Source: Chitinophagaceae bacterium
GTDB taxonomy: Bacteria; Bacteroidota; Bacteroidia; Chitinophagales; Chitinophagaceae
Length of the DNA stretch: 64,000 nt
NCBI GenBank assembly: GCA_044220945.1
Contig: JBGAQC010000008.1
Span: 117,312 to 181,311 of the forward strand
Direction: 5' to 3'
Each line of letters opens with the position of its first letter. The stretch's first letter is position 1. Both the position numbers and the translations under genes were made by a program. The notes beneath the pieces were generated by a model that did no database searches, was not told the DNA's origin, and saw only the letters and a list, made by a program, of their open reading frames with translations. This document shows positions 26,096 to 32,588 of this stretch, piece by piece.

Positions 26096-27157
26096 TTAGC
26101 CCCAGCGCTTTTTATAAAGGGCTGAGAGTTTGTTGATTTCCGGTTCGAGAAGTGCCTGTTTTTTCAGGGCCTTCCAGTTGGCGATATCCCGAAGGGCATT
26201 ATCCCAGCGGTATTGTTGCGGATGTTCACCCATCCAGGTAAAATCAGGAATAAATTTCGGCGTAAGCGGGGCACAGAAAATGTTGGAACTAACCCCAACT
26301 ACAGTACCAGTATTGAATGAAGTGTTGATGGCAGTCCTTGAATAATCTCCCATCAGCAGTCCGCATTTCATGCCGGCTTCCTGATAATCATGGGTTGCAG
26401 CCGACCATACTTTTACTGGACTGGCTGTATTACGCACATTGGAAACCGAGGTGCCTGCTCCCAGGTTACACCATTCACCGATCACCGAATCACCCAGATA
26501 GCCTTCATGGCCTTTGTTGGAATGGCCGAAAAGGATGGAATTCTTGATCTCCCCTCCCACCACACAACCGGGGCCGATGGTCGTGGCTCCATAAATACAG
26601 GCCCCCATCTTCACAACACTGCCTTCACAGAGGGCAAATGGGCCGCGGATATGGGCACCTTCCATGATCTCTGTATTCTTGCCGATATAAATGGGGCCGG
26701 TGGTGGCATTAAGCGTGCAATGACTGAGTACCGCCCCTTTTTCAACAAAGATCTGGGCTGCCCCGGTTACCTGAACCGATTCCGGAAGCGGTTGGCTCAC
26801 CCGTTTACGGGTCAGTATTTCAAAATCCTGACGCAGGGCCCAGTCATTGAGCCGGAAAATGTCCCAGGGATGTTCCAGGGTCTGCGCAGGTTGTAGTGGT
26901 TCACCGGCATTCAGGCTTTTGATCGTTTCCGGAGCCGGTATCCAGTTACCGGGTATTGAAATGATTCTGGAGGAAGGTCGTACCGCAAGCACAGCAGCTC
27001 CGCCCGCGTCATCCGGATTGAGCATAACCCCGAGCAGGTATTCCCATTTTTCGCGGATGGTAAGGATACCGATGCGGATATCCCAACACGGCCTGGTGGC
27101 GGTAAAGGGGTATAATGCATTCTGAAGCGTTTCGCTATCGGGTATCAGGTAGATCAC
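26096..27157 (-). CDS. GlmU-related putative sugar nucleotidyltransferase / hexapeptide acyltransferase
   Basis: LYPFTATRP..IRIGILTIREKW N-terminus, hexapeptide repeats, HEGYLGDSVIGEWCNLGAGT. Confidence 0.8.
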   Translation of the reverse strand: MIYLIPDSETLQNALYPFTATRPCWDIRIGILTIREKWEYLLGVMLNPDDAGGAAVLAVRPSSRIISIPGNWIPAPETIKSLNAGEPLQPAQTLEHPWDIFRLNDWALRQDFEILTRKRVSQPLPESVQVTGAAQIFVEKGAVLSHCTLNATTGPIYIGKNTEIMEGAHIRGPFALCEGSVVKMGACIYGATTIGPGCVVGGEIKNSILFGHSNKGHEGYLGDSVIGEWCNLGAGTSVSNVRNTASPVKVWSAATHDYQEAGMKCGLLMGDYSRTAINTSFNTGTVVGVSSNIFCAPLTPKFIPDFTWMGEHPQQYRWDNALRDIANWKALKKQALLEPEINKLSALYKKRWG

Positions 27158-27211
27158 GAAATAAAACTACATTTTCCTGTTCAAAGCGGAGTTGTCCGCA
27201 GGAGAAAAAAT

Positions 27212-27239
27212 AAAAAACCCTTTCCGGTACCGGAAAGGG
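27212..27239 (-). terminator. rpmE2 terminator (perfect 22-bp palindrome)
   Basis: CCCTTTCCGGTACCGGAAAGGG at 27218-27239 plus a U-tract on the minus strand. Confidence 0.8.
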
Positions 27240-27280
27240 CGACTATCATGAAGCGGGAAAAAAGGTGCGCATAAACACAC

Positions 27281-27532
27281 TTATTTCTTCTTTTCGTAGC
27301 GCTTTTTGAATTTGTCGATACGACCAGCTGTATCCACGAGTACTTTCTGACCGGTAAAGAAGGGGTGAGAAGTACTGGAGATCTCCAGCTTGATCAGGGG
27401 ATATTCATTGCCGTCTTCGAACTTGATGGTTTCTTTGGAAGGGGCAGTGGAGCGGCTCAGGAAGGTAACGCCGTTACTCATATCCTTAAATACCACGAAA
27501 CGGTAACCGTCGGGATGGATTCCTTTTTTCAT
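27281..27532 (-). CDS. rpmE2: 50S ribosomal protein L31 type B (no Zn-binding Cys)
   Basis: [19 protein letters not shown] and DTAGRIDKF; 83 aa. Confidence 0.95.
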
Positions 27533-27631
27533 AACTCATTGATTTAAAAGGTCACACGGATTTTGCCGTATGAGTGATAAAATAGTTTGGAGGCGCAAAA
27601 TTAGGCAAAAATCACTGAAAACCAAAAACAT

Positions 27632-27730
27632 TTACCAATTACCAATGCCCAATTTCCGATGACCAACTACCCTTTTCCCGGTTTTTATCTTCTGGCTACA
27701 GACTACTGGCTACTGGCTACTGACTACTGC
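27632..27730 (-). repeat. Two heptamer arrays downstream of yajQ: TTGGTMA-like x5 (27632-27666) and CAGTAGY-like x5-6 (27692-27730)
   Basis: Plus strand TTACCAA TTACCAA TGCCCAA TTTCCGA TGACCAA and CTGGCTA CAGACTA CTGGCTA CTGGCTA CTGACTA CTGC. Confidence 0.85.
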
Positions 27731-27731
27731 A

Positions 27732-28223
27732 TCACTGGCGCATATTTTCGTATTGGAGCGGAATCCCCAGTCCCCAACCTTTGGAAGCCTGGATCACCGC
27801 CTGTAGGTCGTCGATCTTCTTGCCGGTAACCCGTACGATATCGTCGTTTATGGAAGCCTGGACTTTCAGTCCGCTGTCCTTGATCAGTTTTACGATCTTC
27901 TTGGCATCCTCCATGCGCAGGCCGTTACGGACACTCACCTCCTGTTTCACCAGTTTTCCACTGGGAAAGGAATCTTTGCTGAGGTCGAAGGCTTCGGGAG
28001 AAATACCTTGTTTATGAGCCCGGTTGATCAGCACATCGATCAACTGGCGCATTTTCATATCATCTTCCGTTTCAATATTGAGCTTGAATTCCTTTTTATT
28101 CAGGTCGATCACCACATGGGTGCCCTTGAAATCGAAACGGTTGGTGATTTCCTTGGTGGTTACATTCACGGCATTATCAAGTGCCTGGGCATCCACTTTG
28201 CTGACGATGTCGAAAGAAGGCAT
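27732..28223 (-). CDS. yajQ: YajQ family nucleotide (c-di-GMP)-binding protein
   Basis: MPSFDIVSKVD, NRFDFKG, VRVTGKKIDDLQ and QYENMR. Confidence 0.92.
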   Translation of the reverse strand: MPSFDIVSKVDAQALDNAVNVTTKEITNRFDFKGTHVVIDLNKKEFKLNIETEDDMKMRQLIDVLINRAHKQGISPEAFDLSKDSFPSGKLVKQEVSVRNGLRMEDAKKIVKLIKDSGLKVQASINDDIVRVTGKKIDDLQAVIQASKGWGLGIPLQYENMRQ

Positions 28224-28273
28224 AAGCAATGGGTTTTCCGGTTAAACAGGTGATAAAGATACCGATAAACCGG

Positions 28274-28303
28274 AAAAGAAAAAGGCCCTGTAGAAACAGG
28301 GCC
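28274..28303 (-). terminator. Intrinsic terminator of the candidate small transcript
   Basis: GGCCCTGT-TTCT-ACAGGGCC followed by TTTTTCTTTT on the minus strand. Confidence 0.8.
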
Positions 28304-28369
28304 CGTTAACCAAAACTAACTGCTTATGAGAAAAACTGTATGACTGTATAGATGAGAAAAAAACGTTTT

Positions 28370-28438
28370 TTACATATACGATACCCCGCAGCTGACCAGG
28401 TATACCAGGATTACACATATCAGGATCACTTTTTTCAT
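28370..28438 (-). CDS. Candidate 22-aa peptide MKKVILICVILVYLVSCGVSYM (lipoprotein-signal-like or Ibs-like hydrophobic peptide)
   Basis: Translated base by base from ATG 28438 to TAA 28370: MKK n-region, 13-residue hydrophobic core, LVSC|G lipobox. Confidence 0.6.
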   Translation of the reverse strand: MKKVILICVILVYLVSCGVSYM

Positions 28439-28455
28439 TTTCGCTGCTTTATATA

Positions 28456-28482
28456 TAAGACTCCGGAACGGCAAAAAAGTTA
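28456..28482 (-). promoter_or_regulatory. ECF-sigma-like promoter
   Basis: Minus strand TAAC (28482-28479), 16-nt spacer, AGTCTTA (28462-28456); about 18 nt upstream of the 22-aa ORF. Confidence 0.45.
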
Positions 28483-28567
28483 ACTGGCCTGCTGTTAAAA
28501 TTTTCTAAATACCACAGCCTGCTGGTAACAGGCTGTGGCGGAAGGTTTAATGGTGTCAGGTATAATC

Positions 28568-31024
28568 TTATTGATCTCCTCCCGATTTCACCCGGCTCTG
28601 CTCATCACTGGCTCCACTGGTTCTCCGGTTAGAGGCTGCAGTTTTCCCTTTGCTGAAGCGCCAGGAGAAATTGAGGCTGAACTGGCGACTGTCGCGGCGC
28701 TGGTTGAAAGATGCATCAATATTGCTGTACCGGATCTCCCCATGTATCTTCTGGGAGTACAGGATATCCCGGGCACTGAAGCGAAGGGTACCCTTGCCTT
28801 TCATGATCTGTTTGCTGAGCCCGAGGTTTATCGCCATCACATCATCGATCCGGAACACCCCTTCAATACCCGGTGTGCGGTAGAATCCACCCAGTTCAGC
28901 ACCCCAGGTTTTAGCAAAGCGGAACTGGTTGGTGACATTGAAGAGGGCCGTATTACTTTCCAGCTCTGTGTATTCATTATTGAGTACCCCTTTGTACAGG
29001 TTGTTGAACACATTCATGTACAGGTTGGTATTCCACCATTTGGTGACAGCAAATCCGGCGCTGACCGAGAGCCCGTACTGGCGCTGATTGGCAATATTGA
29101 ATTTGCGGACAACCGTTTCATTTTTATCGATACGCTGTTCCAGAATATCGGAAATGATATCTGTGGTACGGGTATAATTGAGCGTAGTGGTCAGGAAACC
29201 TTTGTAGGTATGACTCAGTTCGATATTGTGGCTGAACTGCGGACTCAGGTTCGGGTTACCCTGTTCAAAAGTGTATTTGTCCAGGAACATGATGAAAGGA
29301 TTCAGGTCTTCATAATCGGGGCGGTTGATCCGGCGGCCATAATTCAGTACAAAACTGTTCTTTTCACTTGCATTATACTGGAGATAGGCAGTCGGGAACA
29401 GCTGGGTATAATTCCGCTTGAACTTATCACCGGTGGTGATCTGGTTACCGGATGCGTTCGTGTTTTCCAGGCGCAGGCCGAACTGGCTGTTCCATTTTTT
29501 GCCCAGCGGGCGGCTGTAGTTTACGTATACTGCATTTACATTTTCCTTATAGAGGAAATGGTTGCTCCGGCCGATATCGCGTACCCGCTGGTTATTCAGC
29601 AGGCTGTCGTAAATGGCGTTATTATCGGTTTCCACATAACTGCTTTTCCAGCCGGCTTCAATACGGGCACCTTTTTCCAGCGGTTTTACAAAGTCCACTT
29701 TGGCTGTATAAATATTGATCGCCTGAGGCAGGTTGCCCAGCAGGGAATCCGAAGGCAGGATGGGTGAACCATCCGGAGAGAAATAATGGTTATAGAGATA
29801 CTGGTCGTTGGCGGAATTATAGTGCAGGTAATCCAGGTCTGCAGTCAACTCCGCTCCGGTGGTATCCAGCATGCGGCGGAAATTCAGGTTGGTGCTGATG
29901 TTCTTCCAGGTGCGGTCGTTGCTGGTTACTGCCTTTGTGGTGCTCTTGGCTATACCTGCAGCATCTGCAATACGCACTGTACTTGCATTGGAGAATGTCA
30001 TTGGTGATGTGAATCCGTTCACAACAAATCCGAAAGTGGTCTTTTTATTCATCGCGTAGTCGAGGCCGATCTTGCCGCTATACGTCTGGCCCAGGTCTTT
30101 CATCCGGGATTCCTGGTCATAGAGGGAAACCACATTCTTGGAAACCCCTTCCAGGAATTTCCGCTGGATATCCAGGTTGTTGAAATTCTGGCGGTAGTTA
30201 TAACTGAAATTGGAGAACAGGTTTACTTTGTTTTTACGATAGTTAAGGTTAACAGACTCACCGGTACGGGCGTAAACACCTTGTGTATATCCCAGTGACA
30301 CACTGCCGCTATACCCCATCTGTTTGTTCTTTTTGGTGCGGATATTAATAACACCGCTGTTACCGGCAGCATCATATTTGGCGGGAGGATTGGTCATGAT
30401 CTCGATACTCTCCAGCTGGTTGGCATTCATGTTTTTCAGCAGTTCAGCCAGATCACTACCCGAAAGATAGGTCGGACGTCCATCGAGATAGACCATCACC
30501 CCTTCTTTCCCTTTCAGGCTGATATTGCCATCTTTGTCTACGGAAATGCCGGGCGATTTTTCCAGGACTTCCAGGGCTGTGGCACCAGCATTCGTGGATG
30601 AGGCTTCTACATTCACGATGGTCCGGTCCATTTTCTGCTCGATCAGTGGCTTCCGGGCTGTAACAGTAACGGCTTTCAGGTCTTTGGCTACTGCCGTAAG
30701 TTTGGTTGTGCCCAGTTCGGCTACCCCACCTGCAGCAAGGGCAAATTCGGGGGTGTAAACGGTACTGAAGCCTACGGATTCGAAGCGGATCCGGTAGGTT
30801 CCGGAAGCGATCTGTTCAAATGACCAGCTGCCGTCACCAGCACTTAAAGTCATTTTAACCAGACTGGAATCCTTGGATTTCAGCAGTGAAACGGAGGCTG
30901 AACCCAAAACGGTCTGGTTCTGGTCGGTCAGTTTTCCGTTGATGCGGGACAGGTTCTGTGCGTGGCTGACGATAGATAAGGTTATGATTATCAGGACTGT
31001 CAGCAGAGTCTTGGCGGTTCTCAT
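28568..31024 (-). CDS. TonB-dependent receptor-like outer-membrane beta-barrel protein
   Basis: Signal peptide, CarboxypepD-like N-domain, plug motif IEIMTNPPAKYDAAGNSGVINI, terminal FSLNFSWRF strand; start ATG 31024. Confidence 0.88.
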   Translation of the reverse strand: MRTAKTLLTVLIIITLSIVSHAQNLSRINGKLTDQNQTVLGSASVSLLKSKDSSLVKMTLSAGDGSWSFEQIASGTYRIRFESVGFSTVYTPEFALAAGGVAELGTTKLTAVAKDLKAVTVTARKPLIEQKMDRTIVNVEASSTNAGATALEVLEKSPGISVDKDGNISLKGKEGVMVYLDGRPTYLSGSDLAELLKNMNANQLESIEIMTNPPAKYDAAGNSGVINIRTKKNKQMGYSGSVSLGYTQGVYARTGESVNLNYRKNKVNLFSNFSYNYRQNFNNLDIQRKFLEGVSKNVVSLYDQESRMKDLGQTYSGKIGLDYAMNKKTTFGFVVNGFTSPMTFSNASTVRIADAAGIAKSTTKAVTSNDRTWKNISTNLNFRRMLDTTGAELTADLDYLHYNSANDQYLYNHYFSPDGSPILPSDSLLGNLPQAINIYTAKVDFVKPLEKGARIEAGWKSSYVETDNNAIYDSLLNNQRVRDIGRSNHFLYKENVNAVYVNYSRPLGKKWNSQFGLRLENTNASGNQITTGDKFKRNYTQLFPTAYLQYNASEKNSFVLNYGRRINRPDYEDLNPFIMFLDKYTFEQGNPNLSPQFSHNIELSHTYKGFLTTTLNYTRTTDIISDILEQRIDKNETVVRKFNIANQRQYGLSVSAGFAVTKWWNTNLYMNVFNNLYKGVLNNEYTELESNTALFNVTNQFRFAKTWGAELGGFYRTPGIEGVFRIDDVMAINLGLSKQIMKGKGTLRFSARDILYSQKIHGEIRYSNIDASFNQRRDSRQFSLNFSWRFSKGKTAASNRRTSGASDEQSRVKSGGDQ

Positions 31025-31298: not shown

Positions 31299-32588
31299 TC
31301 AGGCAGCGTTATTGCCTTTCTTACGGAAATAGAAGAAGCAGACCAGTCCAATGATGACCAAAGCGCTGGAAATCAATTCAGCTTGTGTAGGCCGGAAGGG
31401 TAATTGATCATAGGTGGTATTCACCCTGATTTTTTCTATGAGGAAGCGCTCAATGCCGTTTACAATCAAATATATGCTGAACAATACGCCGGCCTGGTTG
31501 ATCTTTTTACGGATCAGCCAGAGGAAGAAAAAGAGCACCAGTGCCATCAGGGTTTCATAGAACGGTGTAGGAAATACAGGTACGGGAAGCTGCCGGCAAT
31601 ACTGGCCATCAGTACAGTCCCGTATATCCACTCCATGATTCAGCACATTATGCGGATAAGTATAGGCTACCATCCAGACAGGAAGCCCAAATGGGGCTTT
31701 TACGGCTTTATGCGGGATCTGATCCAGAGGTGTTTCATTGAATTCATTGGTATAAAAGCGGCTGTTCATGGTCAGCTGCAGTTTATAGGTATCCGGATCT
31801 GCTTCAACAATTTTATTATCGGTAGTGATCACATAGGCGCTGTTCAGGATGCCCCAGTCGCCATCTCCGGCCACCTGGCAACCGATACGGCCGATGGCAT
31901 AGGCGATCATAAGCGCAGGTGCTGCCGCATCGCAGAGGTGTTTAAAATTGATCTTATGTTTCCGGGCATACCACCATATTGCGAGGGTGGCACAGATCAG
32001 TCCTCCGTAAAAAGTTAATCCGCTGAATGAAAGCAGCGCTTCCACCGGACTGGCGATAAATTCATTCCAGTTTTCGAGGTTATGAAAGATCTTGGCACCC
32101 AGGAAGCCGAAGAGGGCGGCATATATCACGATATCTCCTACCCTGTCGTGCGGCCAGAGGCGTACCGTACGGGTTTCGGGTTTGGCCAGTTTCCGTTTGT
32201 TCTTTTCCCACCATTTCAATCCGGTGAACAGGATAGCCATGGCGATACCCATAGGGAGGTTCCCTTTGGAAGAGAAGATGAATTCCTGAGGATCCACGGC
32301 TTCACCCTTTCCGGTCAGGAAGAGCCCGATAAACTTATAACCGAGGAGAAATCCAAGTAGGAAGTTGATGGCGAGGTCGGTTATAGAAGCCGGCTTACCG
32401 ACTTCAACCTTTACTTCAGAGAACTGAAGCAGTCCCCCTCTTTCTTTTCGTTGCAGTTCTTTTACCAATATATAGGCAGCCACCAGAAAAGCCAGTGCCA
32501 CAAAGAATCCGAACGAGTTGATGAACCGAAGGCCGGACCATTCCACTCCAAAAAGGTCCCGGAAAGCGTAGTAAAGATTGGGATACAT
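31299..32588 (-). CDS. lgt: Prolipoprotein diacylglyceryl transferase, long form with inserts
   Basis: SGLTFYGGL, GRIGCQVAGDG, PTPFYE and GIERFLIEKIR. Confidence 0.9.
   Translation of the reverse strand: MYPNLYYAFRDLFGVEWSGLRFINSFGFFVALAFLVAAYILVKELQRKERGGLLQFSEVKVEVGKPASITDLAINFLLGFLLGYKFIGLFLTGKGEAVDPQEFIFSSKGNLPMGIAMAILFTGLKWWEKNKRKLAKPETRTVRLWPHDRVGDIVIYAALFGFLGAKIFHNLENWNEFIASPVEALLSFSGLTFYGGLICATLAIWWYARKHKINFKHLCDAAAPALMIAYAIGRIGCQVAGDGDWGILNSAYVITTDNKIVEADPDTYKLQLTMNSRFYTNEFNETPLDQIPHKAVKAPFGLPVWMVAYTYPHNVLNHGVDIRDCTDGQYCRQLPVPVFPTPFYETLMALVLFFFLWLIRKKINQAGVLFSIYLIVNGIERFLIEKIRVNTTYDQLPFRPTQAELISSALVIIGLVCFFYFRKKGNNAA

Follow-up and report, generated by a model that had tools for sequence, protein, structure and literature searches.

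A probable small-RNA family of the Chitinophagaceae as a candidate blocker of translation starts in outer-membrane-protein mRNAs

Two short U-rich boxes on the minus strand of a 64,000-nt stretch of DNA from a Chitinophagaceae bacterium (the window), within positions 28304-28365, are antisense to translation starts of the type AUG-AGA-AAA, which raises the question of what kind of RNA carries them and what it could pair with. The plus strand reads ...AACCAAAACTAACTGCTT-ATGAGAAAAA-CTGTATGACTGTATAG-ATGAGAAAAA..., with the 10-mers at 28326-28335 and 28352-28361. This direct repeat of 10 nt with a period of 26 nt, described in the initial annotation, is confirmed, and its frequency is above that of shuffled DNA: ATGAGAAAAA occurs three times in the window (the third copy at 45561-70, minus strand) compared to 0.34 ± 0.55 expected from 100 dinucleotide shuffles, none of which reached three. 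It follows from the two plus-strand copies that a minus-strand RNA contains UUUUUCUCAU twice. The copies at 28326-28335 and 28352-28361 (both minus strand) are referred to as box 1 and box 2.

The boxes are located between two minus-strand genes. Upstream lies a gene coding for a TonB-dependent-receptor (TBDR)-like outer-membrane protein (28568-31024; Pfam CarboxypepD_reg, Plug and OMP_b-brl_3), which ends with its own hairpin, and downstream lies yajQ (DUF520; 27732-28223), also assigned by Pfam. Receptor-neighbour loci were gathered from the Chitinophagaceae, including Sediminibacterium, Flavisolibacter, Parafilimonas, Terrimonas, Segetibacter, Puia and others, and the gene order TBDR, small unit, yajQ is conserved.

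The small unit is compact (about 180 nt, minus strand) and leads from an ECF-sigma-type promoter over a 22-codon ORF and a 3′ region, in which both boxes lie, to an intrinsic terminator; its transcription, its transcript ends and its sigma-factor dependence are what we infer from this arrangement of motifs. The layout agrees with the earlier placement of the boxes in the 3′ half of a small putative minus-strand transcript. The promoter reads GTTAAC-N17-GTCTTATATATA, with a 17-nt spacer between the AAC element and GTC. In its -35 element (G)TTAAC (28479-28484) the AAC is invariant in 12 same-genus orthologues (set A2) and also present in four other genera (L057, L061, L062, L063), and in the extended -10 element GAGTCTTATATATA (28450-28463), which is conserved in five genera, (C)GTCT.A is invariant or nearly so in A2. 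A promoter of the form (T/G)TAAC-N17-GTCT(T/C)ATATA, showing the -35 AAC, the CGTC-type -10 and the spacer of 16-17 nt of ECF-type promoters, is kept in L020, L057, L061, L062 and L063. The transcription start would be located at about 28447-28450. Approximately 10 nt upstream of the -35 element, a conserved TTTTAACA box (28493-28500) was found in nearly all ECF-type orthologues. In many of the paralogues described below, a CATTAACA-like box also precedes the sigma-54 -24 element, by about 20 nt; this kind of box is common to both promoter classes. The ORF (ATG to TAA, 28370-28438) shows a coding signature over its orthologues. It is followed by the 3′ region with a linker AGUCAUACAG (28336-28345), the proposed seed (28308-28334) and the intrinsic terminator, for which a terminator scan gave a 9-bp GC-rich hairpin (28283-28304) and a U-tract (28273-28282).

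A BLAST comparison of the spacer with relatives showed two levels of conservation. The whole unit is kept within the same genus, and a stretch of about 60 nt (28274-28334) is about 90% identical in many genera, with several copies per genome. This conserved module of seed and terminator (28274-28335, minus strand; 94 bits and E = 5.8e-23 with the covariance model R1) contains the core UUUUCUCAUAAGCAGUUAGUUUUGGUU, all 27 nt of which are identical in 17 aligned and 49 unique copies. In the terminator hairpin, eight pairs are 100% paired in 17 copies and four of these eight are changed on both sides. R1 identified the module in 118 of 151 Chitinophagaceae genus representatives with 1-17 copies each and, in about 195 sampled genomes belonging to other families of the class, gave only weak matches of at most 37 bits. 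The search of Rfam 15 (cmscan of 27000-29500, E <= 10) returned chance matches only (PrrF, SorY and suhB, far below the gathering score), and in the literature searched nothing was found on Chitinophagaceae sRNAs. With high probability the module is a true conserved RNA element; judged from the sequence comparisons, it is probably an undescribed small-RNA family found across the Chitinophagaceae and a probable blocker of the translation starts of outer-membrane-protein mRNAs.

The copies of this family differ in what precedes them. A sigma-54-type motif TGGCA-N6-TTGC lies 40-68 nt upstream of 28 of the 49 unique copies and an ECF-type motif AAC-N16-18-GTC upstream of 15, compared to one sigma-54-like and one ECF-like motif in shuffled upstream regions. 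The linker is conserved in the ECF-type paralogues (consensus from 13 ECF-type and 36 other upstream regions), and the sigma-54-type paralogues carry AGCAGUCAA at its position. A second module copy in the same genome (C7:300602-300662) is located behind a sigma-54-type TGGCAT-N5-TTGC. Within the surrounding region C7:300380-300662 (+), which contains no ORF, a textbook sigma-54 promoter, TGGCATCTAATTTGC, precedes the core by about 65 nt. A third R1 match at C7:17296 was rejected as module copy, as it is only a gene terminator.

Box 1 forms the 5′ end of the invariant core and is unchanged in every homologous copy checked (49 unique copies, many genera). The conservation of the boxes at homologous loci, on which the initial annotation had made its reading depend, was thus found for box 1 but not for box 2, which is perfect only in the present genome. 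Already in the nearest relative (L009) the position of box 2 reads UUUUCUCUCUAU, and the other relatives show degenerate U/C-rich sequence there, e.g., CUUUCUUCAU or GUUCUUAU, or no recognisable counterpart. Over the family as a whole, the likeness of the upstream regions to the first 16 nt of the core is weak (8.92 versus 8.38 matches), although it exceeds all 300 of 300 shuffles, and for the 9-mer alone 5.88 versus 5.65 matches were obtained. The twin arrangement as such is therefore not a conserved feature. On balance we lean slightly toward the view that it is functionless, with only box 1 being of importance and box 2 having arisen in low-complexity sequence by chance or by a local duplication of very recent date; the restriction of the perfect box 2 to one genome and the weak second-copy signal across the family speak for this. 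Against it stand the many paralogues of both promoter classes which carry a U/C-rich GUUCUU..AU at an equal distance and the 16-mer likeness above all shuffles, so that a degenerate second site is possible. With its perfect repeat of the seed's first 10 bases, box 2 would be of recent origin, and it may serve as an extra pairing site in this species.

The product of the ORF, MKKVILICVILVYLVSCGVSYM, has a signal-peptide-like N-terminus, a lipobox LVSC and five residues after the cysteine, and follows the lipoprotein-precursor pattern of a positively charged MKK, a hydrophobic VILI... stretch and the lipobox L-V-[S/G]-C. Among 14 distinct 22-codon orthologues, in which Cys17, Gly18, Ser20 and Tyr21 are invariant, the pairwise differences at codon positions 1/2/3 amount to 444/123/947, 60% of the differing codons are synonymous, and the invariant Ser20 is encoded by both TCN and AGC. 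Judged by this pattern of substitutions, the ORF is truly coding, and its product looks like a lipoprotein-type precursor which would be lipidated at the cysteine. A search with the degenerate pattern Y-L-[VA]-[SG]-C-G-[IV]-S-Y-M gave matches in 7 of 151 family genomes (6 genera), and the reversed-pattern control gave none. In five of the six genera the ORF is located between the same ECF-type promoter and the module. In the remaining one (L060) it lies between the receptor gene and yajQ without the ECF-type promoter and without the module, and since the ORF stands alone there, peptide and module are separable units that were fused. Thus, in five genera one promoter precedes both a conserved small ORF and a separate conserved candidate pairing region, and the module is also conserved without the ORF; the peptide would be a separate conserved product of the transcript. 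The peptide showed no match to a Pfam family, and its exact sequences are absent from a collection of 15 billion proteins.

Two further observations concern this ORF. Codons 13-14 (TAC CTG, 28397-28402, minus strand) are near-invariant at their synonymous positions (14/14 and 12/14), while the other codons vary freely, and this constancy may reflect an extra constraint at the nucleotide level (UACCUGGU). The gene lgt, coding for prolipoprotein diacylglyceryl transferase (PF01790, 133 bits), is located at 31299-32588 (minus strand) of the window, two genes upstream of the micro-ORF. It encodes the enzyme that would lipidate such a peptide, and its vicinity may be a coincidence.

The order of promoter, short ORF, terminator and gene resembles classical attenuators, and the synteny of peptide and yajQ is conserved, so a leader peptide whose translation controls terminator read-through into yajQ has to be considered. 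Such an attenuator is very improbable here. The peptide is conserved at the amino-acid level beyond regulatory codons, no alternative antiterminator pairing was seen in the consensus fold, and the module occurs at dozens of unrelated loci. Furthermore, yajQ apparently has a TATCTTTA -7-type box of its own 3′ of the terminator; perfect TATCTTTG boxes were found at the position of this box in several Sediminibacterium-type loci.

The initial annotation had also proposed that the boxes fold back on the start of the peptide in the manner of type I toxin mRNAs, silencing a toxic membrane peptide, with a plus-strand antitoxin or decoy (mini-ORF MRKTV) as a partner. The single-sequence minimum free energy (MFE) structure does contain a pairing between AUGAAAAAA and box 1, the product is a short hydrophobic peptide, and in one genus (L061) the ORF begins with AUGAGAAAG, a perfect complement of the box. 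However, this MFE of -41.2 kcal/mol has a z-score of only -1.6 (14/200 shuffles), i.e., it does not surpass the shuffles. The fold-back is missing from the consensus fold calculated for 10 orthologues, in which both boxes are unpaired and a weak invariant 6-bp hairpin is predicted within the 3′ portion of the core. About 50 copies of the module have no ORF, and the ORF occurs without the module in L060. The conserved lipobox and C-terminus do not give a toxin-like profile. The decoy depends on box 2, which is lacking in other genomes; no conserved plus-strand element was found among the homologous copies, in which the region of box 2 and MRKTV is species-specific, and a plus-strand promoter scan, which is not tuned to Bacteroidota, found nothing. 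A cis lock or type I toxin-antitoxin system is hence improbable, though less so than the attenuator, and neither the fold-back nor the toxin nor the decoy was borne out. In the modelled structure of this single transcript, base pairs with the RNA's own start region may make the seed inaccessible.

For the prediction of targets in trans, 3241 genes were called by a simple ORF method and the region from -35 to +18 around each start was used. Duplex energies were calculated between the 31-nt single-stranded part of the RNA and each start region, with 47 dinucleotide-shuffled cores as control; these seeded duplex energies replaced an ungapped complementarity with G-U pairs, which was mostly noise. 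At or below -22 kcal/mol, 30 genes were found with the real core and 2.8 ± 2.0 (maximum 8) with shuffled cores, and at or below -20 kcal/mol the numbers were 57 and 10.9 ± 5.6. The enrichment for mRNAs of secreted proteins, which had been suggested as a check, was tested: 77% of the top 30 genes are signal-peptide-like, compared to 33% genome-wide and 31% with the shuffles. The mean energies follow the gene class, with -14.5 for TBDR-like, -12.0 for other secreted and -11.2 for the remaining proteins (TBDR-like below other secreted, p = 3e-4; other secreted below the rest, p = 1e-6), while the shuffled cores show no such gradient and are flat at about -10.5. The annotated top matches include a TonB-dependent receptor, a SusC/RagA protein, a TBDR-OmpA fusion and small outer-membrane barrels.

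A typical target reads AACCAAA..UGCCAUU-AUGAGAAAA, and the conserved TBDR leader reads ...AACCAAA..UGCCAUUAUGAGAAAAAG. Predicted pairing extends over the start codon, with CAU opposite AUG and UUUUCU opposite AGAAAA, and would continue into a short A/C-rich leader, where GUUUUGGUU would pair with AACCAAAAC.

The fit was followed into orthologous leaders, which share ancestry and are not independent samples. For the OmpA-like top match, the orthologues in 30 genera have a mean energy of -16.6 compared to -10.0 for shuffled cores, and 12 of the 30 beat all 47 shuffles. For the TBDR match, likewise in 30 genera, the mean is -17.7 compared to -10.7, and 15 of 30 beat all shuffles. As negative control the cis-encoded yajQ was used, which had been considered as a target because it ranks 53rd in this genome (-20.2), yet its 57 orthologous leaders give no signal (-9.1 versus -8.6 shuffled; 4/57 beat all 47 shuffles). 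The adjacent TBDR gene (28568-31024) was rejected as target (-10.7 kcal/mol, rank 1807). The same applies to tpiA, named as a target in the initial annotation, which ranks 566th of 3241 and is no better than with shuffled cores. The best predicted target, C27:85326-85916 (+), comprises 197 residues in this genome, and its OmpA-like orthologues in about 25 genera comprise about 445; the gene may be truncated or split here.

The complementarity of the boxes to AUG-AGA-AAA starts, which had been noted with the reservation that such short matches could be chance, is thus above shuffled cores in this genome and kept in the orthologues of two outer-membrane targets. A start-codon-targeting sRNA gains computational support from the enrichment, the gene-class bias and the orthologue conservation. 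The complement of the core is in part the generic composition of initiation regions in this genome (A-rich from -14 to -10, U at -1, A-rich after AUG), and the core is also composed of hexamers that are common in leaders, an enrichment which, when measured against the genome background, is confounded by the depletion of stop codons in coding DNA. Because of this resemblance to start-region composition and leader hexamers, part of the enrichment may possibly reflect low specificity. In addition, MRK starts are frequent in secreted proteins for reasons independent of an sRNA.

This leads to a further reading, in which the 27 nt are a platform or sponge for an RNA-binding protein, either of the RRM type, e.g., RbpB, or with a KH domain, and the fit to start regions is a by-product of U-rich composition. 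The full invariance over 27 nt in more than 100 genera exceeds the need of most base-pairing seeds, and FopS and GibS are bound sequence-specifically by RbpB (PMC11697453), which also antagonises them. We consider this reading unlikely: dinucleotide-shuffled cores of equal composition do not fit start regions, and the fit of the real core tracks gene class and is kept in orthologues but not in the control gene yajQ. Protein binding and base pairing are mutually compatible.

The protein-binding reading is also countered by a sister sRNA which retains only the 9-10 nt directed against starts. Between the TBDR orthologue and yajQ of Sediminibacterium-type loci (L112-L145 and L171), a sister sRNA-like unit was observed which consists of UUUUUUCUCAUGUGCAUUAUAUAGA and a covarying terminator, lacks an ORF, and has a conserved TTCCGYTCATCC-N-TTTTGACA box in front of it. 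Apart from the terminator, it has only the UUUUUCUCAU box in common with the module. Its pattern was found in 5 of 151 genus representatives, and each of the five has the main module too. In the genome studied here, outside the window, C14:59196 (+) shows UUUUCUCAUGUCUGUUAGUAC and a terminator right after the stop codon of a protein gene, and this element may be a 3′-UTR sRNA with the same 9-nt seed. Two other genera (L057 and L062) carry an extra tandem sRNA-like unit of similar kind (UUUUCUCAUGU... and a terminator) right before the ECF promoter; a second peptide gene (MKKIVLIAIALCYLVGCGVSYL) is present in L057. What the module and these units have deeply in common is therefore exactly the stretch complementary to AUGAGAAAA, which supports its role as the functional seed.

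The promoter motif was also used to look for the cognate sigma factor. ECF sigma genes on C16 and C18 carry similar AAC-N17-GTCC boxes upstream. Apart from the promoter of the unit itself, the strict pattern AAC-N16-18-GTCT[CT]A[TC]AT is matched in this genome only before lolA1 (C5:~121830, minus strand; NF053572, 203 bits) and in a sigma/anti-sigma operon, between an RpoE-like ECF sigma gene and a putative anti-sigma gene (C16:126813-128275, plus strand). The strict motif is not commoner in the own genome than its reversed-pattern control (3 versus 5), and the promoter motif names no cognate sigma.

Among known systems, the unit comes closest to an anti-start-site sRNA of the FopS kind that would have a dual function; it would work like FopS but is not FopS. 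FopS of Bacteroides consists of a single-stranded seed and a terminator, has many paralogues, and occludes the start regions of susC genes, as shown by compensatory mutations and in-vitro translation; one FopS member is derived from a 3′ UTR (PMC11697453; PMC7366714). Like the FopS and GibS sRNAs of Bacteroides thetaiotaomicron and the Bacteroidaceae, the module is a multi-copy paralogous element of Bacteroidota; its two boxes are unpaired in the consensus fold, its terminator covaries, and it has 1-17 copies per genome. It differs from them in several respects: there is no match in sequence or structure (Rfam 15, E <= 10), it is found in the Chitinophagaceae, i.e., in a different order and family, and its promoters are of the sigma-54 and ECF types, whereas those of FopS/GibS are sigma-ABfr/PM2. 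Moreover, its predicted targets are TBDRs and OmpA-like barrels in general, whereas FopS/GibS act mainly on susC genes of PULs, and the present member also encodes a conserved peptide.

Parallels also exist in other phyla. MicA, RybB and MicL of the Enterobacteriaceae are sigma-E-dependent envelope-stress sRNAs which act with Hfq, and OmpA is a target of MicA. To our knowledge, Bacteroidota lack Hfq. The present unit resembles these as a putatively ECF-sigma-driven sRNA against abundant outer-membrane proteins or lipoproteins, with the ECF dependence read from the promoter motif alone, but the sequences are unrelated and most paralogues of the module are of the sigma-54 type. Qrr1-5 of the Vibrionaceae (RF00378) are paralogous, Hfq-dependent sRNAs with an invariant pairing region and sigma-54 promoters. 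The module likewise has several paralogues with one invariant region and sigma-54-type promoters; phylum, sequence and targets are different, and the present copy is not of the sigma-54 type. Finally, SgrS/SgrT, RNAIII/hld, SR1/SR1P and AzuCR are dual-function sRNAs, and CpxQ, which originates from the 3′ UTR of cpxP, links an envelope-stress mRNA to a 3′ seed. As in this group, a small conserved ORF and a separate pairing region, here a predicted one at the 3′ end, would be joined in one transcript. The peptide is different, being a 22-residue lipobox precursor with only about six mature residues, and a 3′ processing would have to be assumed. We know of no dual-function or 3′-UTR-borne sRNA of this type in the Bacteroidota.

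Taken as a whole, the interval is best explained, with a probability of roughly 0.6, as the core of a 3′-borne anti-start-site sRNA and dual-function member of its family. It would be the 3′ UTR of a minus-strand RNA about 180 nt in length, running from the ECF-type promoter through the 22-codon lipoprotein-type micro-ORF to the terminator, in which box 1 would open the 27-nt single-stranded core directly before the terminator hairpin. Core and hairpin together would be the shared module of a multi-copy sRNA family restricted to the Chitinophagaceae, most paralogues of which seem to have sigma-54-type promoters and no ORF, with the present copy as a dual-function or 3′-UTR-borne member. The preferred targets would be mRNAs of secreted proteins, above all those of the outer membrane such as TonB-dependent receptors and the OmpA-like protein. 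Pairing would mask the initiation region, so that less protein would be made while the cognate ECF sigma is active, presumably in response to an envelope signal; pairing and repression of targets in vivo are what we infer from the predicted duplexes.

A wider reading is possible but speculative. The family as a whole could be an anti-start-site riboregulator in which one invariant seed is wired to sigma-54 and to an ECF sigma, globally throttling the synthesis of outer-membrane proteins at the level of translation, in an Hfq-independent counterpart to the sigma-E sRNA response. Its ECF-driven member would then be truly dual-function, and the lipobox peptide with its approximately six mature residues could report on the maturation and trafficking of lipoproteins, as a sentinel or as a feedback signal; the position of lgt two genes upstream and the similar promoter box before lolA1 agree with this idea.

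Nearly all that is known of post-transcriptional control in Bacteroidota comes from gut Bacteroides (GibS, FopS, RbpB), and this locus points to an independent and far more widely conserved seed family in an abundant family of soil and freshwater. The 27-nt invariant core, the two promoter classes and a short list of conserved candidates (one TBDR family and the OmpA-like protein) offer handles for experiments. If the reading is true, the masking of start regions without a Shine-Dalgarno sequence by sRNAs would be a general strategy of Bacteroidota, and the phylum would have its first dual-function sRNA together with a conserved 22-residue lipobox peptide that gene callers have missed.
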